From: Acidobacteriaceae bacterium
GTDB lineage: Bacteria; Acidobacteriota; Terriglobia; Terriglobales; Acidobacteriaceae
Reading direction: 5' to 3'
DNA: 64,000 nucleotides
NCBI GenBank assembly: GCA_030037635.1
Contig: JASHQH010000321.1
Span: 10,571-74,570 of the forward strand
The translations under genes were made by a program, and so were the position numbers. Positions within the stretch are counted from its first letter, which is position 1. Every line of letters starts with the position of its first letter. Shown here in pieces: positions 1,790-59,756 of the stretch. The notes under the pieces were generated by a model. It was not told where the DNA came from. It did not search any database and saw nothing but the letters and a program-made list of their open reading frames with translations.

Positions 1790-3184
1790 ATGCACGCGGT
1801 CCTACGCCGTCTTTCGGTTTTCGTCTCCCCCGTCGTCACTGCGATTTTCCTCCTCGCCGCCGAAGCCCATGCCGCGCCTGTCCTGATGATCTCCATCGAC
1901 GGGCTCAAGCCCGAATACATCACCCACGCCGACGAGCACGGCATGAAGATCCCCTACCTGCGCACGCTCGTTGCCAACGGCACGTATGCTGAGGGCGTGG
2001 TCGGCATCTGGCCCACGGTCACCTACCCCAGCCACACCACGCTGCTCACCGGTGTGTGGCCCGCTCAGCACGGCATCTATGCCAACCTGGTCTTCGATCC
2101 CTTCCAACATTTCTCCGGCGCGTGGTACTGGTACGCATCGCAAATCCGCGTGCCCACGCTGTGGCAGGCTGCGCACAAGGCCGGACTGCACACCGCCAGC
2201 GTGGGCTGGCCGGTCAGCGTTGGCGCCACCGGCGTGGATTACCTGATCCCGGAGTACTGGCGCGGGCCGAACGCCGACTACTCCCCGGATCCCGACGACC
2301 AGTTGCTGATGGCCTCACTGGCCCGACCCGACACGCTGATCCAGCAACTTGAACCCGCCGCCGGCCCTTACATGAACGGCAACGACACCAGCATCGGCGG
2401 CGATGAGGTGAAAACCCGCTATACGCTGGAGATTCTGCGCCGCTACAAGCCGGCGCTCGTCACTCTGCACCTCAGCTCGCTCGATGCGGCGCAGCATGCG
2501 CATGGGCCGTTCAGCGCCGAGGCCGATGCCGATCTCGAGGCCCTTGACGGCATGGTCGCGCGCCTGACGCGCCAGGAGTTTGCCTTGAACCCCGCAGCCG
2601 TGCTGGTCATCGTCTCTGATCACGGCTTCATGAACATCACGCATTTTGTGAATCTGGCCTACGCGTTCGTGAAGGCAGGATTCATTCAGGCCACCTTCAA
2701 TCCCGGCTCAAGAGTCCCCTCAGTGACTTCGTGGAAGGCCGAGCCGTGGAGCGCCGGCGGCATGGCCGCTATCATGCTGCATGATCCCGGCGATGCGGCG
2801 ACTGAGCAGCAGGTGCGTGCGTTCCTTATGAAGCTTGCAGCTGACCCATCGAACGGCATTGCGCAGGTCCTCGACCGCCAGGAAATCACCCGGCGCGGCG
2901 CATTCCCCGATGCAGCATTCCTCGTCGTCTTCAAGCCCGGCTATTACTTCGGCACCGACACATCGGGCACTCTGGTCACGCCCGTTCCCGGAACGCGCGG
3001 CTCCCATGGCTTCTCGCCGGAGTATCCTGAGATGCGCTCTTCCTTCTTTGCGTTAGGGGCCGGCATTGCCCATCATCGCGACCTGGGTGTAGTGGATATG
3101 CGCCAGATTGCGCCCACCGTGGCCCACATCCTGCACGCGCCGATGCCCACGGCAAAGGCCGAGCCGCTGCACGTGGCGCCTTGA
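1790..3184 (+). CDS. Secreted nucleotide pyrophosphatase/phosphodiesterase (type I phosphodiesterase, alkaline-phosphatase superfamily)
   Basis: MISIDGLKPEYI and TVTYPSHTTLLTGVWPAQHGI metal/nucleophile motifs, VSDHGF; signal peptide from Met at 1790 (track ORF starts 1727). Confidence 0.8.
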   Translation: MHAVLRRLSVFVSPVVTAIFLLAAEAHAAPVLMISIDGLKPEYITHADEHGMKIPYLRTLVANGTYAEGVVGIWPTVTYPSHTTLLTGVWPAQHGIYANLVFDPFQHFSGAWYWYASQIRVPTLWQAAHKAGLHTASVGWPVSVGATGVDYLIPEYWRGPNADYSPDPDDQLLMASLARPDTLIQQLEPAAGPYMNGNDTSIGGDEVKTRYTLEILRRYKPALVTLHLSSLDAAQHAHGPFSAEADADLEALDGMVARLTRQEFALNPAAVLVIVSDHGFMNITHFVNLAYAFVKAGFIQATFNPGSRVPSVTSWKAEPWSAGGMAAIMLHDPGDAATEQQVRAFLMKLAADPSNGIAQVLDRQEITRRGAFPDAAFLVVFKPGYYFGTDTSGTLVTPVPGTRGSHGFSPEYPEMRSSFFALGAGIAHHRDLGVVDMRQIAPTVAHILHAPMPTAKAEPLHVAP

Positions 3185-3296: not shown

Positions 3297-3390
3297 CTTG
3301 TTGCCTCAGTCCCTTGTTCCCTGCCGGGGCCCCGGGCGTGCGATTTCTGCTCGCTGGGGGTGGCTTGCCCTCAGTCCCTTGTTTCCTGCC
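3297..3390 (+). repeat. Dispersed repeat copy 1: CCCT-array arms flanking a GC-rich stem-loop core (B module)
   Basis: TTGCCTCAGTCCCTTGTTCCCTGCC (3301-3325) and TTGCCCTCAGTCCCTTGTTTCCTGCC (3365-3390) flank GGGGCCCCGGGCGTGCGATTTCTGCTCGCTGGGGGTGG; ends 3 nt from the stop codon at 3394. Confidence 0.8.
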
Positions 3391-12469: not shown

Positions 12470-12572
12470 CCGCTGGGTGCCCCCGGTCCCTCCCACTTGG
12501 GGCCGGGAAAGAGCAATCCACCACCCGCTGGGTGCCTCGGATCCCTCGTATTTGAGGACCTGGGAAAGCACA
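12470..12572 (+). repeat. Tandem pair of about 50-bp repeat units (family F)
   Basis: CGCTGGGTGCCCCCGGTCCCTCCCACTTGGGGCCGGGAAAGAGCA and CGCTGGGTGCCTCGGATCCCTCGTATTTGAGGACCTGGGAAAGCA; unit 1 folds as CCCGGTCCC/GGGGCCGGG. Confidence 0.75.
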
Positions 12573-17840: not shown

Positions 17841-17885
17841 CGCCAGGGGGTGCCCCCGGTCCCTCGCACTTGGTATCCGGCAAAC
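17841..17885 (+). repeat. Third copy of repeat family F
   Basis: CGCCAGGGGGTGCCCCCGGTCCCTCGCACTTGGTATCCGG matches the units at 12470-12572, same polarity. Confidence 0.7.
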
Positions 17886-17909
17886 ACCAATTCCGAAAGG
17901 CCTATCTCC

Positions 17910-25990: not shown

Positions 25991-26195
25991 TGCCCCATCC
26001 TTTCCGCGGCTGCGGAATCCCCCGAACCCGGGGTCCCCGGCGAGCGCTCTCTGCTCGCTGGGGTGGAGGGACAGGTCTTCGTTCGTGGGGTGGCTTCATC
26101 GCGGAAAGGGCGGGGTCCACTGACCCTCCCTCGCTCGCTGTCTTCTGTTCCCTGTTCCCTGTGTCTAACTCCGCTAACACCGCTGCCCTCCTGCG
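25991..26195 (+). repeat. Composite nested repeat (A arms, internal B module, CCCT array, 9-mer D module)
   Basis: CCCCATCCTTTCCGCG (25993-26008) pairs with CGCGGAAAGGGCGGGG (26100-26115); B core 26028-26076; CTGTCTTCTGTTCCCTGTTCCCTG 26138-26165; AACTCCGCTAACACCGCT 26167-26184. Confidence 0.8.
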
Positions 26196-28382: not shown

Positions 28383-29969
28383 TTGACAGGCGAACAGTTG
28401 GAAGCATCGCGCGCCGAAAGGATGCGCCAGAACGGACTTGGGGCATTAACCTTCGAAGATGCCCGTACCTGGCTGGAGGAGACAGGACTGTGTCTTTTCC
28501 TTCCGCGCAAGCAGTTCCCCTCTTTTATCGCACCCACCTTTGTTGAAGCCGTCGCCGGAGCGCATAACAACAATCCTGGCGCTAGGCTCGTCGCCCAGGC
28601 GGAGGATTTGCTGGTTCGACTCGAAGCCGCCGGGGTAGCGGTTCGCCTCAACCTGCAGGGAACACCAGGCGACCAGCCCGACTTCGTCGTGGCGGGATGG
28701 GTTTTACCCTACGTGTACGCGCTGCGTGGCGATCGCGATTGGCGCCGCAATCCGCAGCTCACCGGCTCGCGCGCTGTCTCCCCGCTGGCCATTCAGGCCT
28801 ACAAGCACCTGGAGCAAGGCGACGCCACCGTCTCGCAGTTGCGGCACTCGCTTGGCCGCGAGGTTTCAGAGTCCGCCGTGCTGCGCGCCATCACCGAGCT
28901 TTGGCAGCAGCTCCGCATCATCCCCGTCATCTCCGCGCCCGGCAAGGCGGCGCAATGGCAATTGTTGCGGGTGCGCTTCCAGAAAGCCATCGCCGAAGGC
29001 GCCTCCACCTCCCAGGTCACAGCCATCTCGGTCCTCGCCTCCATTTACCTGCAGGCGGTCATCGCCGCCAGCATGGAGGAAGTGGAGCTGTTCCTGGCTC
29101 CGCTCACCGCGCGCAGCAAGGTGCGCGAAGTGCTGCGCGGCCTGGTGGCCACTCGCCAGGTTCACACCATCACTCTGGGTCACGCTCCGCACTATTATGT
29201 CGCCGGCACGCTGCCCGAGTTCACCGCGCCTCCTACCGTCTACGCCAGTTCCGCCATGCCTGCTTCCAAGCAGTTCCTGCGCCCTTGGGAGCATGAGGAA
29301 GAGACGCACGCGCCTTCGAGAAGCCTGTTGTCTCCGCCTGCAAATGGATCGAACGCCGCGCCGCCGCGCACTCCGGCTCCGGCCGCCCCGGCTTCCACAC
29401 TCGCTCCTGCGCCCCAGGCTCCGGCTGTTGAAGCCCGGCCGCACTTCAGCCGCCCGCCGGCACGTCCGCGCAGCCGCAAGCCCTCGCCAAGCCCAGCAGG
29501 CAATCGCCCTGCCCGCCGCACCGTCCGCGGTACGGCTCTCCGCAGCAACGGCTCGGCACGGCATAAACCGCAGGCGCGCTGGACGCAGAGATCCGACAAG
29601 CATGGAAGCCGGCACCCGGGAAAGAACTCCAGCGTCGGCCGCTATCAAGGCAATGGCAACGCTCGCACCAGCAGCGCGGGGAGCCTGCGCAAAACCAAGC
29701 CCTCCGCGGCTCGAAGCCTGCATAACGGCCACGCCGGCAACGGCAAAGCCGCGCCAAAATCCGCGTCCCGGTCCGTAAGCCGGCACAACGGAGCCTCGCG
29801 CAACGGTGTGCGTTCCGACGCGCGCCAATCGCGCAAGCCGGCGCTCACTGCATCAGCCAAGGCCGGGGCCCCCGCGAATCGGTCTTTGTCCGCGGGGTGG
29901 AAGGCAAGTAACCGCACCCGCTACGGATTCACCGCTCCGCGCGGGCCGCGCTCGAAGAAACGCGGATGA
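28383..29969 (+). CDS. Hypothetical protein: folded N-terminal region (~300 aa) plus ~230-aa highly basic low-complexity tail
   Basis: TTG start (Met 28422 possible); tail rich in R/K/S/P/N; stop overlaps cmk start (ATGA). Confidence 0.6.
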   Translation: MTGEQLEASRAERMRQNGLGALTFEDARTWLEETGLCLFLPRKQFPSFIAPTFVEAVAGAHNNNPGARLVAQAEDLLVRLEAAGVAVRLNLQGTPGDQPDFVVAGWVLPYVYALRGDRDWRRNPQLTGSRAVSPLAIQAYKHLEQGDATVSQLRHSLGREVSESAVLRAITELWQQLRIIPVISAPGKAAQWQLLRVRFQKAIAEGASTSQVTAISVLASIYLQAVIAASMEEVELFLAPLTARSKVREVLRGLVATRQVHTITLGHAPHYYVAGTLPEFTAPPTVYASSAMPASKQFLRPWEHEEETHAPSRSLLSPPANGSNAAPPRTPAPAAPASTLAPAPQAPAVEARPHFSRPPARPRSRKPSPSPAGNRPARRTVRGTALRSNGSARHKPQARWTQRSDKHGSRHPGKNSSVGRYQGNGNARTSSAGSLRKTKPSAARSLHNGHAGNGKAAPKSASRSVSRHNGASRNGVRSDARQSRKPALTASAKAGAPANRSLSAGWKASNRTRYGFTAPRGPRSKKRG

Positions 29970-31825: not shown

Positions 31826-31890
31826 TCCTCGCTCCCTGTCTTCTGTTCCCTGTTGCCTGTTCCCTGTTCCCTCGTTCTCTGTCCTTCCCG
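31826..31890 (+). repeat. CCCT-array repeat copy
   Basis: CTGTCTT CTGTTCC CTGTTGC CTGTTCC CTGTTCC CTCGTTCT CTGTCCTT; starts 14 nt after a stop codon. Confidence 0.8.
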
Positions 31891-31933: not shown

Positions 31934-32236
31934 ATGGGAATGAGGGAAATCGTTGCGTTCGTCTTCGGGCTCGCCTTGCTCGGTAATGCGGCTCTCTTTG
32001 TGCCCCAGGCTCTCGCCGTCTGGCGAAAAAAGAGCGATGAGGGCATTTCGCTCGTCACCTTCGGCGGTTTCTGCATCCTGCAGGTGATCGGTGTCGTGCA
32101 CGGCTTCTACGAGCACGACAATTCCCTCATCATCGGCCTCGGCGCCAGCTTTCTCACCTGCGGCACCGTCACCCTGCTCACTGTCGTCTATCGCATTCGC
32201 CGCCTGCGCGCCCGCACCACCTACCCCGCCGACTGA
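31934..32236 (+). CDS. SemiSWEET / PQ-loop 3-TM transporter (100 aa)
   Basis: FVPQALAVWRKKSDEGISLVTF PQ motif and three TM helices; hidden in spurious track ORF 31196..32236. Confidence 0.7.
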   Translation: MGMREIVAFVFGLALLGNAALFVPQALAVWRKKSDEGISLVTFGGFCILQVIGVVHGFYEHDNSLIIGLGASFLTCGTVTLLTVVYRIRRLRARTTYPAD

Positions 32237-32256: not shown

Positions 32257-32340
32257 GCCCTATCCTTTCCGCTGTCTCATCGCGAAAAGGGTGGGATCGG
32301 CCCTAACGCCGCAAACTCCGCCAACCCCGCTAACTCCGCT
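32257..32340 (+). repeat. Repeat modules A (imperfect hairpin) plus D (9-mer triplet)
   Basis: CCCTATCCTTTCCGC...GCGAAAAGGGTGGG; AACTCCGCC AACCCCGCT AACTCCGCT. Confidence 0.65.
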
Positions 32341-32978: not shown

Positions 32979-33070
32979 TTCTTTGCTCTCTGTTTTCTGT
33001 TCCCTGTTCCCTGTTGCCTGTTGCCTGTCTTCTTGTTCCCTCGGTCCCTTGGTCCCTTGTTCCCTGTCTT
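32979..33070 (+). repeat. CCCT-array repeat copy filling the whole intergenic spacer
   Basis: CTGTTTT CTGTTCC CTGTTCC CTGTTGC CTGTTGC CTGTCTT CTTGTTCC CTCGGTCC CTTGGTCC CTTGTTCC CTGTCTT, then T and ATG 33072. Confidence 0.85.
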
Positions 33071-38585: not shown

Positions 38586-38680
38586 CCCCTAATCCCTTAG
38601 CCCCTGTCTTCTGTTCCCTGTTCCCTGTTCCCTGTTCCCTGTTGCCTGTTGCCTGTTGCCCGTTGTCCTCAAGTCCTCAC
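38586..38680 (+). repeat. CCCT-array repeat, best copy
   Basis: CTGTCTT (CTGTTCC)x4 (CTGTTGC)x3 CCGTTGT at 38604-38666. Confidence 0.9.
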
Positions 38681-38695
38681 CCATTCTTCCGATAC
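38669..38695 (+). promoter_or_regulatory. Sigma28 (FliA)-like promoter candidate for the che operon
   Basis: TCAA-N15-TCCGATAC versus consensus TAAA-N15-GCCGATAA; about 60 nt upstream of cheA ATG. Confidence 0.25.
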
Positions 38696-38755
38696 ACCTC
38701 ATGAGTGCCCGCCGCGCCGGATGCTTTAACCCGGCCGGCGGCTCAAGTGTGCGCA

Positions 38756-43960: not shown

Positions 43961-44070
43961 CCTCGGTCCCTTGGTCCCTGTTCCCTCCTGCCTGTTCCCT
44001 CGTCTCCGCCCCCTGCCGGGCCCTCCGGTGAGCGATCTTTGCCTGCTGCGGCAGCTTGCTCCCTGTTTTT
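43961..44070 (+). repeat. CCCT array plus B-module repeat copy
   Basis: CTCGGTCC CTTGGTCC CTGTTCC CTCCTGC CTGTTCC CTCGTCT then CCCTGCCGGGCCCTCCGGTGAGCGATCTTTGCCTGCTG; starts 3 nt after the cheR stop. Confidence 0.8.
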
Positions 44071-49734: not shown

Positions 49735-52452
49735 CTAACTCGCCGGCTCGTTCCCCAGCAGCCGCTCCACTTCCTCCTGCAGCCGCGCCGTGATCGCGGC
49801 TTCGCTGTCCTGCGGCCTGAACTGGATGGCTTCGCCGATGTGCACTTCGAGAATGCCCGAGCGGAACCAGCGCCGCTGCCCCGTCTTCAGTTCCCCCAGC
49901 CCCCGGATGGCCGTAGGCACCACGGGCACGCCGCTTTGCTTGGCCAGCAGCCCGATGCCCGCTCTGAACCGCGCCAGCTTGCCTGACGCCGAGCGCGTGC
50001 CCTCGGGAAAGACCAGCACGTTGTAGCCGTGATCCATGGCCTTGCCCGCGTGCGCGAAGCTCGACTGGAAATCGCGCAGTTGTGGCAAAGGAAAAACATT
50101 GAAGCAGAGCGTGACCAGCCAGTAAGCCGGCGGGCCGAAGAAGTAAAAGCCCTTGTGTCCCGGCGGCCAGTCGGGATTGCGCCCGTGCCGGAAGTCCTCA
50201 AGCATCTCTCCCGACATGGCGATGGCCAGGTGCCGGCGCCAGGGCCCGGCCAGCGCGTATTGAATCAGCGCGCCGTCGTACGCAGTCACGTGATTGCCGA
50301 CCAGAAGCAGCGGACCCTCCGGCAGCGGCTTCGGCGGTCCCACAACGCGAGGCGCAGCGAGAATCCAGGCCAGTGGGCGCAGAATCGTCTCGAAGAACGC
50401 CGCTCGAAACCACTGGAACGGCTTCCACCACGGCCAGGTGGGATAGTGATAACGGTAGCGCGGCTGCGCGGCAATCCCTGTTCTCTGTTCCCTGTTGCCT
50501 GTTACCTGTTCCCTCGTCCCTGGTCCCTCAGTCCCTGCCTTCTCGGTCCCTTGATCCCTGCCGGGGCCCCCAGCGGGCGATATTTGCCCGCTGGGCTGGC
50601 TCGGTCCCTCGGTCCCTGTCGTTACCACCCTCCGCAAATCCCCCAGCGTCTGCACTTCTTCCAGCAGCCCGGTGCCCGAGACCACTCCCAGCCGATCCTC
50701 GATCGCCGCCGCCAGTTGCACCCGTCCCAGGCTGTCCAAGTGTAGGTCTTCGTCCAGGCGGAGCTCGTCGCCCACACCGGGATTGCTTTCGCCGGTGATC
50801 TGCGCAATCAGCGTCAGCAGCCAATCCGCCGAAGGGCCGCCGTTCGTCGAGGCATGGGGCGAGCCGCTGGTGGGCGTAGCGGCCACTGCCTGCACTCGCT
50901 GCAGCCACGCCGCCACGGGTTTCCGTTTCACCTTGCCGGTTGACGTGCGGGGCAGATCGGGTTCCGGCCACAGCACCCACCTGCTGATGCGCTGGAACTC
51001 CGGCAGCTGGGCGTTGGCGCGCCGGATCGCCGCCGCAATCTGCTCGCCCGTCCCGCGTGTTGCCAGCGCGGCGCACGGCTCCGGACCCGTGGGCGTCTCC
51101 ATGGCCACCACCGCGCAAGCTGCGATCTCCGGCTGCTCCTCCAGCGCCGCTTCAATGTCCTCCGGATGTACGTTGAGCCCCGCCGCGGTGACAATCACCT
51201 CGCTCTTCCGGCCCAGAAATTTCAGCTCCCCCGACTCCTGCCGCTCGGCAAGGTCCCCCGTCGCCAGCCACTCGTCCTCTCGTGGGCGCAGCGCGCCGCC
51301 CTGCCAGGTGGCCCCCGAGATCATCTCGCCCCGAACCAGCACTTCCCCGTCCGCGGCCAGCTTCACCTCCCGGCCCGCCATCGGCTTGCCGATGGTGCCC
51401 GCCGCCACGTGGAAGGGATGGTTCAGCGTGATCAGGGCGGTGGTCTCCGTCATGCCGTAGCCCTGGATGAGAACAAACCCCAGAGCGTTCCAGAACTGCT
51501 CCAGCAGGCCGGGCAAGGCGCCCCCGCCGCTCACGAAAGCCCAGAACTTGAACCCGAACTCGCCATGCACCGCGCGGAAACGCCACCACCGCAGCCAGGG
51601 ATTGAGCTTGCGCGACGCCCCCGCCCGCTCCTCAAGTCCCGCGTGGTTCGACTCTAAATGAGACTTCAGCAGCGCCAGCACCCGTGGAACAGTCGCCAGA
51701 ACCGAGACGCGCTCGCCGTGGATCAGCTCGATGAGGCGCGGCGCGGCCAACCGGCTCTCGAAGTGAAGCTCGGCCGTCAGGATGGGCGGAATCCAAAGTC
51801 CCATCGTCTGCCCGAAAACGTGACTCAGCGGCAGCGTATGCAGAATGCGCAGCGGATGCACCAGCCATCGATAGCGCAGGTAGGGCTTGGCGCCGTCTTC
51901 GATGGGCCCCACGCTGGCCAGCACGTTCCCGTGCGTGATGACAATGCCCTTGGGATCGCCGGTGGTGCCCGAGGTGAAGAGAATCTCAAGCGGAGACTCG
52001 CGGGTGAGGCCGGAGATGGGGCCCATTTCCGCAGCCGGCAAATCGTCAAGCCAGTCTTCCAAGGCCAGAGCAGGAATCGCCGGCCCACTCCGCGCCGCGG
52101 CCAGCTTGTCCAACAGATGCATATCCCCCACGGCCAGCTTGGGATTGACGTCGCCAGCCACGCGGGCCGCAAAATCCGCCGATCCGGCCGCATCGAGCGG
52201 AACGCTGAGCACTCCGCGCAGCAGGCATCCATAAAAGGCGGCAATCCACTCCGCGCTGTTTTCGCCCCAAAGCAGCACCCGATCGCCTGCCCCAATCTGC
52301 CGCTCCGCTAAATAGGCGGCAAAACGGCCGGCCAGCCGCGCCAGCTCCCCGTAAGTCGTCACGCGGCGGCGATTTCCCTGATACCGCACCACCGCGATAT
52401 CACGGTCGAAGCGCCGAAAATCGTCGATGAGCGAAGCCAGGTGATCGCGCAT
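49735..52452 (-). CDS. Tri-domain fusion: AMP-dependent acyl ligase, acyl-carrier domain, lysophospholipid (PlsC-type) acyltransferase
   Basis: LFTSGTTGDPKG, GYGMTET, PRTSTGKVKR; carrier LHLDSLGRVQL (Ser codon 50731-50733); acyltransferase NHVTAYD (about 50273-50295) and FPEGTRS. Confidence 0.85.
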   Translation of the reverse strand: MRDHLASLIDDFRRFDRDIAVVRYQGNRRRVTTYGELARLAGRFAAYLAERQIGAGDRVLLWGENSAEWIAAFYGCLLRGVLSVPLDAAGSADFAARVAGDVNPKLAVGDMHLLDKLAAARSGPAIPALALEDWLDDLPAAEMGPISGLTRESPLEILFTSGTTGDPKGIVITHGNVLASVGPIEDGAKPYLRYRWLVHPLRILHTLPLSHVFGQTMGLWIPPILTAELHFESRLAAPRLIELIHGERVSVLATVPRVLALLKSHLESNHAGLEERAGASRKLNPWLRWWRFRAVHGEFGFKFWAFVSGGGALPGLLEQFWNALGFVLIQGYGMTETTALITLNHPFHVAAGTIGKPMAGREVKLAADGEVLVRGEMISGATWQGGALRPREDEWLATGDLAERQESGELKFLGRKSEVIVTAAGLNVHPEDIEAALEEQPEIAACAVVAMETPTGPEPCAALATRGTGEQIAAAIRRANAQLPEFQRISRWVLWPEPDLPRTSTGKVKRKPVAAWLQRVQAVAATPTSGSPHASTNGGPSADWLLTLIAQITGESNPGVGDELRLDEDLHLDSLGRVQLAAAIEDRLGVVSGTGLLEEVQTLGDLRRVVTTGTEGPSQPSGQISPAGGPGRDQGTEKAGTEGPGTREQVTGNREQRTGIAAQPRYRYHYPTWPWWKPFQWFRAAFFETILRPLAWILAAPRVVGPPKPLPEGPLLLVGNHVTAYDGALIQYALAGPWRRHLAIAMSGEMLEDFRHGRNPDWPPGHKGFYFFGPPAYWLVTLCFNVFPLPQLRDFQSSFAHAGKAMDHGYNVLVFPEGTRSASGKLARFRAGIGLLAKQSGVPVVPTAIRGLGELKTGQRRWFRSGILEVHIGEAIQFRPQDSEAAITARLQEEVERLLGNEPAS
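50474..50619 (+). repeat. Complete CCCT-array/B-module repeat copy lying in frame inside the 905-aa CDS
   Basis: CTGTTCT CTGTTCC CTGTTGC CTGTTAC CTGTTCC CTCGTCC CTGGTCC CTCAGTCC...; perfect inverted repeat CCCAGCGGGC (50569-50578) / GCCCGCTGGG (50586-50595). Confidence 0.85.
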
Positions 52453-54859: not shown

Positions 54860-54970
54860 CTGTCATCCTCAGCCAGGTTTGGCGCGCATCGGGGTCCCCA
54901 GCGGACCATTTCTGTTCGTTGGGGAAATTGAGCGCCAAACCAAGTCGAAGGATCTGCGGTTGCCTCTGAG
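54860..54970 (+). repeat. Repeat family G, long form with nested B-like module
   Basis: TGTCATCCTCAGC...AGTCGAAGGATCTGCGGTTG; inner perfect stem GGTTTGGCGC (54876-85) / GCGCCAAACC (54932-41) encloses CGGGGTCCCCAGCGGACCATTTCTGTTCGTTGGGG. Confidence 0.75.
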
Positions 54971-56213: not shown

Positions 56214-56584
56214 CCGGTTGCCTGGATCCGGTCTTGAAAGGGCACGGCTTATCAGGGTCCTCGGCGACTGATTTTTGGTCGCTGGAGTGACTTGAGCCGT
56301 GAAGCCGCATAAAGATGAGGCTTTAGACCCTTTGAAGGGTACGGGCTTTTAGCCCCGGCTCCGAGCACCGTTGCCCCATCCTTTCGCGCCTTTCGCGAAA
56401 GGGTGGGAAGCCGTGAACGCTGGCCAATCTCCGACGAACCCGGCGGGATCGGAGGGAGCAGCGGTCTTCAGGCCGCTGAATCTCCCGCAAAAGATCGTCG
56501 CGGCTTTAGCCGCGGGCCTTTTTCGCGGCGAATCTAAAGCCTCGTGCGGACACTTTTCGCCCCTGAGGGATGTTTTTCCGTGTC
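56214..56584 (+). repeat. Stack of at least 5 different hairpin repeat modules in a convergent intergenic region (BIME-like)
   Basis: GACCGG..CCGGTC (56212-56233); GGCTTTAGACCCTTTGAAGGGTACGGGCTTTTAGCCCC; A hairpin 56375-56407 (14 bp, one G.U); E copy 2 at 56448-56518. Confidence 0.8.
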
Positions 56585-58015: not shown

Positions 58016-58082
58016 CGCCTGGGGTGGGGAATCTCACCGCATCGCCGCTCCCTCGCTTTTCTAATCCCCGAATCCCTGATCG
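58016..58082 (+). repeat. Repeat copy (GGGGTGGGGAATCTCACCGCATCGCCGCTCCCTCGCTTT plus short CCCT array)
   Basis: Near-identical 30-nt core with the copy at 59639-59706; ends 11 nt from the stop codon at 58094. Confidence 0.8.
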
Positions 58083-58093
58083 TCGTCCCCCGG

Positions 58094-59494
58094 CTACTGG
58101 GCGGCCACCGCAATCGCTGTGGTCCAGGACTCATACGTGCCGCTGGGCATGGGCAACAGCGTGGCCTCGCCGCCGTTCACCCAATATGCGGCGGTTTGGC
58201 CCACGCCCATGGGCTCATCGATCAAAGATCCCACCGAATACACATCGTTGCCTGAGAGCGCGATCCCGACCGCCCAGGAAGTAGCGGAAGAATCTGTCAA
58301 GTTGTTGGGCATGGGCAACGTGATGGGCGTGCCGTTCTCCCAGTATGCCGCGGTGCCGCTGCCCACGCCCGTGGACCCACTCCCCGCCATATACACGTCG
58401 CCGCCCGAGACCGCGATCCCGACAGCTCCGTACTCTCCGAATAAAATTCCGGCGGGAATAAGCAACGTCGTGGCCGCGCCGTTGTTCACCCAGGATACGG
58501 CGGTGTCCGTGTCCGCGTTGGAGTCTGTATTTCCTGATACATAAACATTGCCGCCCGACACCGCGATCCCCCAAGCGTAATAATCCCCCGTCAGGCCGCT
58601 GGGCATGGGCAACAGAGTGGCCGCGCCATTCACCCAGAGCGTGGCGCTTTCGTCGTTATCGGTGTTCCACGCAACTCCCGTCACGTACACATCGTTGCCC
58701 GATACCGCGATCCCCGCGGCGTAAGAATATGCCATGCCGCTGGGCGGCGACAGCGTTGTGGCCGTGCCGTTCACCCAGAGCACGGCGGTGCCGTCGCCCG
58801 CACTGTTCTCCTCGTATCCCGCTACATACACGTTGCTGCCCGAGACCGCGATCGCGTTGGCTTCCGAGATTGTCATGCTGCTGGGCAATGTCGTGGCCGT
58901 GCCGTTCAACCAATATGCGGCCGTTTGGCCCGTGCCGGTCGATGCAGATCCCACCACATACACATCGCTGCCCGAGACCGCGATCGCGTTGGCTTGCGCG
59001 CTTGTCATGCCGCTGGGCATCGGCAGGGCCGTCGCCGTGGCCGTCGGGCTGCCGGAGGTAAGCTTCCAAAGCTCTGCGACGTTCACCACGTTCTCTGCAG
59101 TTGATGCCGAGGAGACCGCAAACCCTGAGATATAAACACTTGTGTTTGGGCCGATGGCCGGGTTCACGGTGAAGCTCTGCGCTACCTGCGAAGCCGCCGC
59201 ATAGGTGCCGTTGCCGTCCTGGCTGGCGTCGATGGTGCAGGTTCCGGCTGTCTCAAACGTGGCCGTCGCTCCAGAGATCGTGCACACGCCGGGAGCTGCT
59301 GAGGTAAAGGTAACTGCGGCGCCGGAGCTGGCCGTCGCCGAGAGCGCTAGCGACGTTCCTGCCGTCTGCGTACCGGGATTGTCGAACGTGATAGTTTGCG
59401 CTGCATGACCGACGCTATTGCCGCTGTTGCCGCAGCCGCCGGCGAGCAGGGCCAGCGGAATCGAAAGAAGAGAGTACAGCTTGAGACGCTTCAT
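58094..59494 (-). CDS. Lipoprotein: Ig-like domain plus probable seven-bladed beta-propeller of ~40-aa repeats
   Basis: Lipobox LLAGGC; seven units of the form AVSG.DVYV.G....TA.YW.NG..T.LP. Confidence 0.75.
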   Translation of the reverse strand: MKRLKLYSLLSIPLALLAGGCGNSGNSVGHAAQTITFDNPGTQTAGTSLALSATASSGAAVTFTSAAPGVCTISGATATFETAGTCTIDASQDGNGTYAAASQVAQSFTVNPAIGPNTSVYISGFAVSSASTAENVVNVAELWKLTSGSPTATATALPMPSGMTSAQANAIAVSGSDVYVVGSASTGTGQTAAYWLNGTATTLPSSMTISEANAIAVSGSNVYVAGYEENSAGDGTAVLWVNGTATTLSPPSGMAYSYAAGIAVSGNDVYVTGVAWNTDNDESATLWVNGAATLLPMPSGLTGDYYAWGIAVSGGNVYVSGNTDSNADTDTAVSWVNNGAATTLLIPAGILFGEYGAVGIAVSGGDVYMAGSGSTGVGSGTAAYWENGTPITLPMPNNLTDSSATSWAVGIALSGNDVYSVGSLIDEPMGVGQTAAYWVNGGEATLLPMPSGTYESWTTAIAVAAQ

Positions 59495-59638
59495 ATAAGA
59501 GAGCACCTCCTTGCCTGCGCGCGCCTGCGACCGTTGCGGGTTGCTTGCCGTGGCGACGCTGCTCCATCGATTTCGATTCCGGCCCCAACATTATGACACC
59601 CTTTCCGGAAAAGGCATTGCGCCGGCAAATCGTCTTCG

Positions 59639-59756
59639 CGCCTGGTGTGGGAAGAATCTCACCGCATCGCCGCCCCCTCGCTTTCTATTCCCTATTCCCT
59701 GATCCCTGTCTTCTCGCCCCCTTGGCCCCTGTCTTCTGTTGCCCGTTCCCTCGCTT
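59639..59756 (+). repeat. Repeat copy with long CCCT array
   Basis: CGCCTGGTGTGGGAAGAATCTCACCGCATCGCCGCCCCCTCGCTTT then CTATTCC CTATTCC CTGATCC CTGTCTT CTCGCCCC CTTGGCCC CTGTCTT CTGTTGC CCGTTCC; abuts the stop codon at 59757. Confidence 0.85.

Follow-up and report, generated by a model that had tools for sequence, protein, structure and literature searches.

Replication-strand polarity of a family of heptamer and octamer repeat arrays in an Acidobacteriaceae genome

The 64,000-nucleotide stretch of an Acidobacteriaceae genome analyzed here, which is called the window throughout this paper, carries nine tracts of a tandem repeat with a period of 7 or 8, whose unit is GGGA-N3-4 when read on the G-rich strand and (N)TCCCT when read on its complement. 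The genes around these tracts are ordinary ones: mutL, a cytidylate kinase gene, genes for CBS-domain, DUF2277, DUF3738 and OmpA-like proteins, the cheA-W-Y-B-R operon and a Ser/Thr kinase gene, with no transposase gene among them. All nine tracts named in a preliminary description of this DNA are present where it placed them, and its best copy reads exactly as given: the core of this array, 38604-38666, consists of CTGTCTT (38604-38610), four CTGTTCC units (38611-38638), three CTGTTGC units (38639-38659) and CCGTTGT (38660-38666). Tandem Repeats Finder (TRF) detected period-7/8 arrays starting at 26145, 31833, 32997, 38602, 43961, 50475 and 59685. The repeats are far in excess of chance, since TCCCT-N2-TCCCT (TCCCTNNTCCCT) has 11 matches in the window against 0.06 expected and TCCCT-N3-TCCCT (TCCCTNNNTCCCT) has 8 against 0.10; all 19 lie on the + strand (~0.16 expected in total), and a unit-cluster scan of the window found no genuine array on the - strand. 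The tracts are best explained, with fair probability, as a real and co-oriented family of slippage-prone simple-sequence repeats (SSRs) with a period of 7/8, oriented by a replication filter.

The orientation of the tracts does not follow the direction of the genes. Eight of the nine tracts are intergenic, as had been supposed for all of them, and the ninth, 50474-50619, lies inside a genuine 905-aa gene of the - strand (49735-52452). In six of the nine, one end is no more than 14 nt (0-14 nt) away from a stop codon, and the distances reported earlier for these six all proved correct against the ends of the open reading frames (ORFs). Three arrays follow the stops of + genes and three follow the stops of - genes, and all are C-rich on the + strand; the earlier observation that every tract keeps to the + strand despite neighboring genes on both strands is thus borne out. 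All 2-kb bins of the window have a negative GC skew, although its genes are shared about evenly between both strands. Third codon positions give a negative + strand skew for genes of either orientation (-0.28 in + genes, -0.10 in - genes), so that the skew is for the most part independent of transcription. On the leading strand, G exceeds C as a rule; with the negative skew, the + strand is therefore the C-rich, lagging-type strand, which puts the G-rich strand of the repeats on the leading one.

The same relationship was scored in two public collections, GTDB genome blocks and metagenome contigs (L-numbers below denote related contigs or genomes used for comparison). The genome scan, which took one genome per species and three CTGTTSC units as the query, returned mostly cyanobacteria, together with 14 blocks of Acidobacteriaceae/Acidobacteriota and a few of Gemmatimonadota, Phycisphaerae and Clostridia. 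Three GTCCCTNN units were the query of the metagenome scan, which yielded 120 contigs, mostly of high GC content; L181, a contig with a (TCCC)n microsatellite of another kind, was left out of this set. The orientation of arrays of at least three (N)CCCT units was compared with the skew of the local flanks, calculated after masking of the arrays, and TRF was used for the unit types CGTGATT, CTGTTTT and CTGACCA, which the first array regular expression missed. In high-GC contigs with an absolute skew of at least 0.06, 97 arrays were co-oriented with the skew and 14 were opposed to it (20:1 in GTDB genome blocks and 77:13 in metagenome contigs), and at an absolute skew of at least 0.1 the numbers were 78 and 7. 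Low-GC, mostly cyanobacterial contigs gave 27:30 and hence no polarity. Behind cheR, the window, with its negative skew, has an array whose C-rich strand is in cheR sense; at this position in L245, where the local skew is +0.09, it is the G-rich strand that is in cheR sense. The ~60 independent high-GC contigs and this flipped array show that the polarity goes with the replication strand and not with transcription, as the preliminary description had rightly supposed. For arrays lying no more than 100 nt from a gene start, the strand in mRNA sense was C-rich in 27 cases and G-rich in 29 over all contigs, and for those after stop codons it was G-rich in 64 cases and C-rich in 32. Transcription does not set the polarity. 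The coordinates of the tracts, of the embedded hairpins discussed below and of one adjoining promoter are collected in Table 1.

Table 1. Repeat tracts, hairpin modules and the cheA promoter in the window, with hairpin copies on other contigs.
Feature	Position (strand)	Composition	Context or source
Best array	38586-38680 (+)	Canonical G-quadruplex motif on the - strand at 38616-38639	Between DUF3738 gene (stop 38514) and cheA (ATG 38756)
Array-hairpin-array composite	3297-3390 (+)	8-mer segment 3304-3325, GC-rich hairpin 3318-3369, 8-mer segment 3369-3390	Between convergent genes; 3 nt from stop of a - strand outer membrane protein gene
Short array	26138-26165 (+)	CTGTCTT-(CTGTTCC)2-CTGTGTC	45 nt upstream of mutL
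Array	31826-31890 (+)	~8 units	14 nt past stop of zinc-ribbon protein gene; upstream of small PQ-loop gene (31949-32236)
Array	32979-33070 (+)	~12 units, 7-mers then 8-mers	Occupies the entire spacer from CBS-domain gene stop (32966) to DUF2277 ATG (33072)
Array with degenerate hairpin module	43961-44070 (+)	Array 43961-44002, hairpin 44010-44060	Begins 3 nt past cheR stop, between convergent genes
Array-hairpin-array composite	50474-50619 (+)	Hairpin 50555-50605	Within - strand gene 49735-52452
Weak array	58058-58082 (+)	3 degenerate units, TCTAATCC-CCGAATCC-CTGATCG	11 nt from stop of - strand gene 58094-59506
Array	59684-59756 (+)	~10 mixed units	Abuts stop (59757) of - strand BNR/sortilin-like gene
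Sigma-28 (FliA)-like promoter of che operon	38669-38696 (+)	TCAAGTCC-N12-CCGATACA	Directly downstream of best array
Hairpin copies	3318-3369, 26022-26072, 44010-44060 (degenerate), 50555-50605 (+)		Window
Hairpin copy	26022-26072 (+)	CCGGGGTCCCCGGCGAGC-GCTCTCT-GCTCGCTGGGGTGG	Nested in a larger palindrome downstream of M48 peptidase gene
Weaker hairpin copies	29857-29906, 54889-54924, 56252-56287		Covariance model, window
Hairpin copies elsewhere	L218 874-924, L246 3607-3657, L010 7217-7266, L115 4937-4986, L216 4698-4747, L017 6764-6813, L149 4276-4325		Covariance model

The preliminary description saw in the arrays the pattern of a G-quadruplex (G4), always on the - strand, with i-motif potential on the + strand. 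Three of the nine tracts do contain the canonical G3-N1-7 x4 motif, but the remaining six have loops of 10-12 nt or just three G-runs and fail the pattern. Generic G4 motifs in the window number nine on the - strand, the three of the tracts among them, and none on the + strand. Since composition-matched simulations give the same asymmetry (5.0 on the - strand and 0.4 on the + strand), the 9:0 count is uninformative, and the constant strand of the G4 motifs was rejected as evidence in itself. A G4/i-motif potential of the longest arrays is plausible by analogy with (GGGAATC)n.

Composition could also be called upon to explain the polarity as a whole: C-rich seeds would be commoner on the lagging strand, slippage would amplify them, and orientation would be an unselected by-product. 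The asymmetry of generic G4 motifs, already present in the simulations, is in line with this account, and so is the published leading-strand bias of bacterial G4 motifs, which scales with GC skew and vanishes in cyanobacteria just as the polarity of the arrays does (PMC12581993). However, the unit is barely skewed outside the arrays: the strand ratio of TCCCT there is 55:36 in all DNA and 13:12 between genes, and that of CTGTTCC is 4:5. Two-unit seeds are therefore expected at ~1-2.5:1, far from the 9:0 of the window or the 78:7 of strongly skewed contigs. The leading strand of the arrays, moreover, is rich in A and not in T, which a simple C-to-T deamination bias would not yield. The polarity is not a base-composition effect, and a wholly unselected origin of the orientation is improbable.

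These counts bear equally on the idea that the arrays are iterated polar DNA signals for a protein that tracks replication direction, in the manner of FtsK orienting polar sequences (KOPS) and FtsK or of Chi and RecBCD/AddAB. The arrays are G-rich, dispersed and oriented with the leading strand, as such signals would be, but the unit has no leading-strand skew outside the arrays or inside genes, its sequence differs between orthologous arrays, and the truly skewed octamers of the window, CGGGCGCG and GCGGCGGG, each 18:0 on the leading strand, are unrelated to it. A signal of this kind is very improbable, and the heptamer was rejected as a KOPS- or Chi-like skewed word on the ratios of TCCCT and CTGTTCC outside the arrays. 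The two octamers themselves, which read CGCGCCCG (18:0) and CCCGCCGC (18:0) on the + strand and owe this extreme bias to sites outside the arrays, are candidate KOPS- or Chi-like polar words of the lineage.

The behavior of the arrays at orthologous sites points to slippage. The CheA protein of the window is 72-81% identical to proteins named Terracidiphilus sp., which places this soil bacterium among the uncultured Acidobacteriaceae near Terracidiphilus; the same range of identity holds for CheA of relatives that have arrays at orthologous sites. A pyrimidine-rich 7/8-mer array stands just before the cheA promoter in all eight genomes compared. These arrays comprise between 2 and >12 units and differ in unit type, with CGTGATT and CTGTTTT in L121, CTATTCC and CTACTCC in L122, and two to three degenerate units in L124, where the skew has the opposite sign. 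The promoter that follows the array in the window is one which we take to match the FliA consensus. Upstream of cheA, TCAAGTT-N11/12-CCGATA is found in seven of the eight genomes, and L121 retains the CCGATACA part only; in L122, L124 and L245-L248 the motif lies ~40-70 nt upstream of cheA and is directly preceded by the array, on the cheA sense strand. The array at 31826-31890 has an ortholog in L121 (3788-3860), which is shorter and built of different units. In the spacer from the CBS-domain gene to the DUF2277 gene, L121 has ~6 units, the window about twice as many, with the same 3' end, CCCTGTCTTTATG, and L124, again with skew of the opposite sign, has no array. The window array in this spacer ends 1 nt before the DUF2277 ATG with no Shine-Dalgarno sequence visible, and the junction CCCTGTCTTT-ATG is common to the window and L121. 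These differences in unit type and number between orthologous arrays point to slippage-driven SSRs. The comparison of orthologous intergenic regions, which the preliminary description had proposed, found arrays with other units or copy numbers, or none.

Several further sequence features adjoin these sites. In L245 and L248, whose DUF2277 homologs lack the array, purine-rich sequences resembling a Shine-Dalgarno motif are present. The + strand of the window also bears another tandem family, of period 9 (CTAACNCCG), at 26165-26184 just upstream of mutL and at 32303-32340 just upstream of the CBS-domain gene; it is missing from the orthologous site in L121. A leader of ~35 nt, GGGAA..ATCTCACCGCATCGCCGC-YCCCTCGCTTT, is common to two arrays (58029-58060 and 59652-59686, +), and shorter CCCTCGCT leaders stand ahead of the arrays at 26128 and 31826. 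The gene next to the weak array, 58094-59506 (-), is a 470-aa ORF without a Pfam hit, built of repeats of ~141-150 nt (~47-50 aa; families D5-D10), and probably encodes a repetitive surface protein.

The position of many arrays close to stop or start codons raises the question of whether they act as RNA, for example as Rho-loading (rut) sites after stops, as unstructured pyrimidine leaders for translation, as heptamer sites for cold-shock or S1-like proteins or, from the other strand, as CsrA-titrating or G4 RNA. Apart from the six tracts near stop codons, several observations would suit such a role. The arrays are unstructured as RNA: neither strand is predicted to fold, the energies of 0 to -5 kcal/mol are no better than those of shuffled sequences, and the + strand of the best copy has a minimum free energy of 0 kcal/mol; canonical intrinsic terminators were not found at array sites; the DUF2277 gene begins directly past an array without a Shine-Dalgarno sequence; and the G-rich strand prevails in mRNA sense after stops. 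CspB binds pyrimidine-rich heptamers with one protein per unit (reviewed in PMC4679880), and ACAGGGA is a literal match to the CsrA core ACARGGA. But the arrays occupy the same DNA strand throughout, so that + genes see C-rich RNA and - genes its G-rich complement, and one RNA-level function therefore cannot account for both gene directions. A rut site, which is C-rich, G-poor and unstructured after the stop in gene sense, fits the arrays at three + genes and is reversed at three - genes. Sense preference is nil near gene starts, and the array on the cheA side, being upstream of a conserved promoter, is probably not part of the che transcript.

The proposal of a CsrA sponge fails, despite the literal match, on architecture and strand logic. 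In CsrB/RsmZ sponge RNAs the GGA motifs sit in hairpin loops and the RNA has its own promoter and terminator, whereas no hairpins presenting GGA motifs are predicted in the arrays. In the window, sigma-70 promoters around the arrays occur at chance level, with none at the arrays, and the same holds for intrinsic terminators. Rfam searches at gathering and permissive thresholds gave no relevant match in the window or in seven related loci, and tblastn searches of the 64-kb window with csrA, fliW and IS200 tnpA gave no significant match. Little probability can be assigned to any of these RNA-level roles.

Some arrays enclose a second component, a GC-rich hairpin module of the form CCGGGGYCCCC-stem-GATNTNT-stem-GGGGTGG, which lies in or beside four tracts and was found, in every copy, on the C-rich strand of its own contig. 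The copy at 50555-50605 is the best-folding one (z = -2.7). Two subtypes of the module differ in loop and stems, and the stems still pair (ACGGAC/GTCCGT, ATCGA/TCGAT and ACTGAC/GTCAGT). An outer palindrome, CCCCATCC...GGGTGGG, often surrounds the hairpin, and in L218 and two of the window copies near-identical 8-mer segments stand on both sides of it. In an alignment of seven copies, 84% of the cells are paired, compared with 39-53% for slid controls; covariation in this alignment amounts to only 2 compensatory pairs and is not significant, and the hairpin has no Rfam match. The module behaves like a dispersed repeat of the repetitive extragenic palindromic (REP) type, separate from the arrays and co-oriented with them. 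Another co-oriented hairpin repeat of the window, GGGTGCCCCCGGTCCCTC...TTGGGG.CCGG, is found at 12470-12515, 12525-12570 and 17843-17888 (+), has a similar counterpart in L010 and is unrelated to the heptamers.

One composite of array and hairpin forms part of a coding sequence. The 905-aa gene encodes a fused AMP-dependent ligase, acyl-carrier domain and acyltransferase, and the tract 50474-50619 with its hairpin encodes, in frame, the linker between the acyl-carrier and acyltransferase domains. The earlier remark on reading frames is hereby supported, since the units are stop-free and this one tract lies in the coding frame of a genuine gene. The ortholog in L124 is 72% identical, and the linkers of the orthologs in L124, L246 and L247 are unrelated sequences of similar length, rich in A/S/P.

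The hairpin and the linker also bear on the question of mobility. The tracts, or at least the array-hairpin-array composites, could be non-autonomous elements of the REP or miniature inverted-repeat transposable element (MITE) type, with their orientation set by an HUH transposase acting at the fork. The strict co-orientation with the replication strand agrees with this view, as do the dispersal of the hairpin, with 4-6 copies in the window and more on seven other contigs, all on the C-rich strand, the compensatory variation of the stems between subtypes, and the replacement by one composite of a gene linker that is unrelated in relatives. The 22-mers flanking the hairpin 3318-3369, which are 95% identical (repeat scan, family D14), could be a target duplication. 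The arrays, on the other hand, are neither palindromic nor bounded by terminal inverted repeats, and the ends of the window tracts grade into their flanks; at orthologous sites the units of the arrays turn over as expected of slippage, and several unrelated phyla have arrays of the same heptamers. Inverted doublets of the REPIN/BIME form were not found in the window, where all copies are direct and the family is absent from the 25 longest inverted pairs listed, and the covariation of the hairpin lacks significance.

An enzyme for such movement is likewise missing from the window: the search for RAYT or IS200/IS605 tnpA and for csrA, suggested in the preliminary description, found none within 64 kb. 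The only RAYT-like gene met in related contigs, an HUH gene with an HVHLL motif on the metagenome contig L230 (2401-2877, -), carries a different REP, GGCACGACTGAAGTCGTGCC, in its flanks (2028-2065 and 2917-3050), with three tandem copies on one side. Insertion of the arrays by a RAYT/IS200 enzyme, as first envisaged, is thus not supported, in view of the lack of a palindrome and of terminal inverted repeats and of the slippage behavior at orthologous sites. The idea of a mobile element lacks support for the arrays and survives only for the embedded, dispersed hairpin together with the linker case; as an explanation of the tracts it is unlikely. About as unlikely is a bolder version, in which the composites, perhaps also the arrays, would form a replication-polar copy-and-paste class of Acidobacteriaceae, spread at the fork through single-stranded DNA by some enzyme that has yet to be connected with it, with the 7/8-mers as target or flank and with the capacity to be domesticated as linkers, or in which the arrays would be orientation-specific signals that manage replication or replication-transcription encounters.

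The preliminary description could not match the repeats to a described family, but close relatives in architecture are known. G-rich heptameric repeats have been reported in Xanthomonas (GGGAATC and heterogeneous GGGANTN) and in Nostoc (GGGGA(C/T)T) (Rehm et al., 2015; PMC4692102). About 90% of them are intergenic, typically no more than 50 bp from a stop codon or shortly before an ORF, and their copy number ranges from 2 to >20 (2-26 units). G4 and i-motif formation by these repeats has been observed in vitro, the G4 of (GGGAATC)3GGG having a T1/2 of 50 C in KCl, and a leading- or lagging-strand preference was not found in Xanthomonas (PMC4692102). The window arrays share with them the tandem 7-mers with a run of G3-4 and a loop of 3-4 nt, the heterogeneous units, the placement near stops and ORF starts, the variable copy number, and the G4 potential on one strand with i-motif potential on the other. 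Units of the Xanthomonas type, GGGAATA, GGGATCA and GGGATTC/GGGGATTAG, are literally present at 58058-58082 and 59684-59710, and the modest G-rich-sense bias after stops runs in the direction reported for Xanthomonas. The main difference is that arrays of the window type are nearly fixed to the replication strand (97:14 with the skew). In addition, 8-mer units (GGGACCGA and GGGACTGA) are mixed with the 7-mers, four properly spaced G-runs are found in a minority of the window tracts only, some arrays enclose the GC-rich hairpin, and the host phylum is another one.

The preference of G-rich motifs for the leading strand is also known. In the Quadrupia catalogue, bacterial G4 motifs favor the leading strand in proportion to GC skew, with no bias in cyanobacteria (PMC12581993), and the arrays resemble them in strand, in the dependence on skew and in the contrast between high-GC and low-GC contigs. 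That catalogue, however, deals with generic G4 motifs over whole phyla and attributes the bias largely to base composition, whereas the present case concerns one repeat family whose bias far exceeds the skew of its own unit outside the arrays and extends to arrays that fail the G4 pattern. The STRR heptamers of cyanobacteria and the TAACTGA direct repeats of Beggiatoaceae and cyanobacteria are intergenic, often end 1 nt before a start codon without a Shine-Dalgarno sequence, vary by indels in 7-nt steps between related strains and are occasionally found in frame in variable protein regions (PMC4679880). The arrays are like them in intergenic tandem heptamer period, in start-codon placement and in occasional in-frame presence in proteins; unlike the arrays, which are G/C-rich and oriented by replication, they are AT-rich and oriented by the downstream gene, which suggests an RNA-level logic. 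With REP/BIME-RAYT systems and IS200/IS605 the tracts have in common short intergenic repeats near the 3' ends of genes and a strand bias relative to replication, and the embedded hairpin module resembles a REP as an imperfect GC-rich palindrome in many copies. The arrays themselves are non-palindromic, so that the imperfect palindrome of 20-40 nt typical of REP/BIME is seen in the hairpin module only, and they differ further in that neither a RAYT gene nearby nor inverted doublets were found and in that the RAYT-like gene of L230 goes with another REP. From MITEs the tracts are set apart by the lack of terminal inverted repeats, the direct repeats of 22 nt that flank one hairpin (at 3304 and 3369) being ambiguous as a target duplication.

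What is already known, therefore, is the architecture and placement of G-rich heptamers in Xanthomonas and Nostoc and the leading-strand preference of bacterial G4 motifs; what is new is the strictness of the polarity, the co-oriented GC-rich hairpin in some arrays, the composite that serves as an in-frame gene linker and the mixture of 7- and 8-nt units. The arrays are a lineage-specific, unusually strict case of a known quadruplex-prone simple repeat and not a new class of element. For the preferred explanation, slippage under a replication filter, the following course may be envisaged. The arrays would grow, shrink and switch unit through replication slippage and would settle in unconstrained DNA, that is, just past stops, upstream of promoters and, once, in a protein linker. 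Since the leading strand almost always has the G-rich sequence, its template would carry the C-rich one. Arrays of the opposite orientation would be lost, as G-rich structures on the leading-strand template may stall the replisome or be deleted, and G-rich structures on the discontinuously copied template would be tolerated, since repriming past them is possible. The hairpin module, which sits inside some arrays, may be copied along with the flanking units.

Several points weigh against this explanation. The step of selective loss is drawn by analogy from work in other organisms, the assignment of leading and lagging strands derives from GC skew only, and the metagenome contigs were placed in the lineage by a GC filter alone. 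Three of the nine tracts are canonical G4 motifs and yet all nine are polar, so that G4 formation may not be the property that is filtered; this property could be another structure or an orientation-dependent bias of slippage. Of the 111 arrays scored at the lower skew threshold, 14 run counter to the skew. Pairs of inverted 7/8-mer arrays that form long palindromes, in L122 (7731-7766/7847-7878) and in L237 (5510-5582/5630-5710), are the main exceptions to the polarity rule. An array upstream of the cheA promoter in eight of eight genomes could mean a local function and not neutrality. Finally, the hairpin-bearing composite inside the 905-aa gene cannot be put down to slippage in situ.

The finding overturns nothing that is known. 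The arrays are common in the non-essential spacers of Acidobacteriaceae genomes, and they present one abundant, near-absolutely polar family in a lineage with very strong GC skew. They offer a clean natural system in which to ask why repeats that are prone to form structures should be tolerated in only one of the two orientations at the replication fork, the more so as the same heptamers are unpolarized in cyanobacteria. Such arrays can enter coding sequence in frame and become interdomain linkers, and their orientation could mark the local direction of replication on fragmentary metagenome contigs of Acidobacteriaceae.

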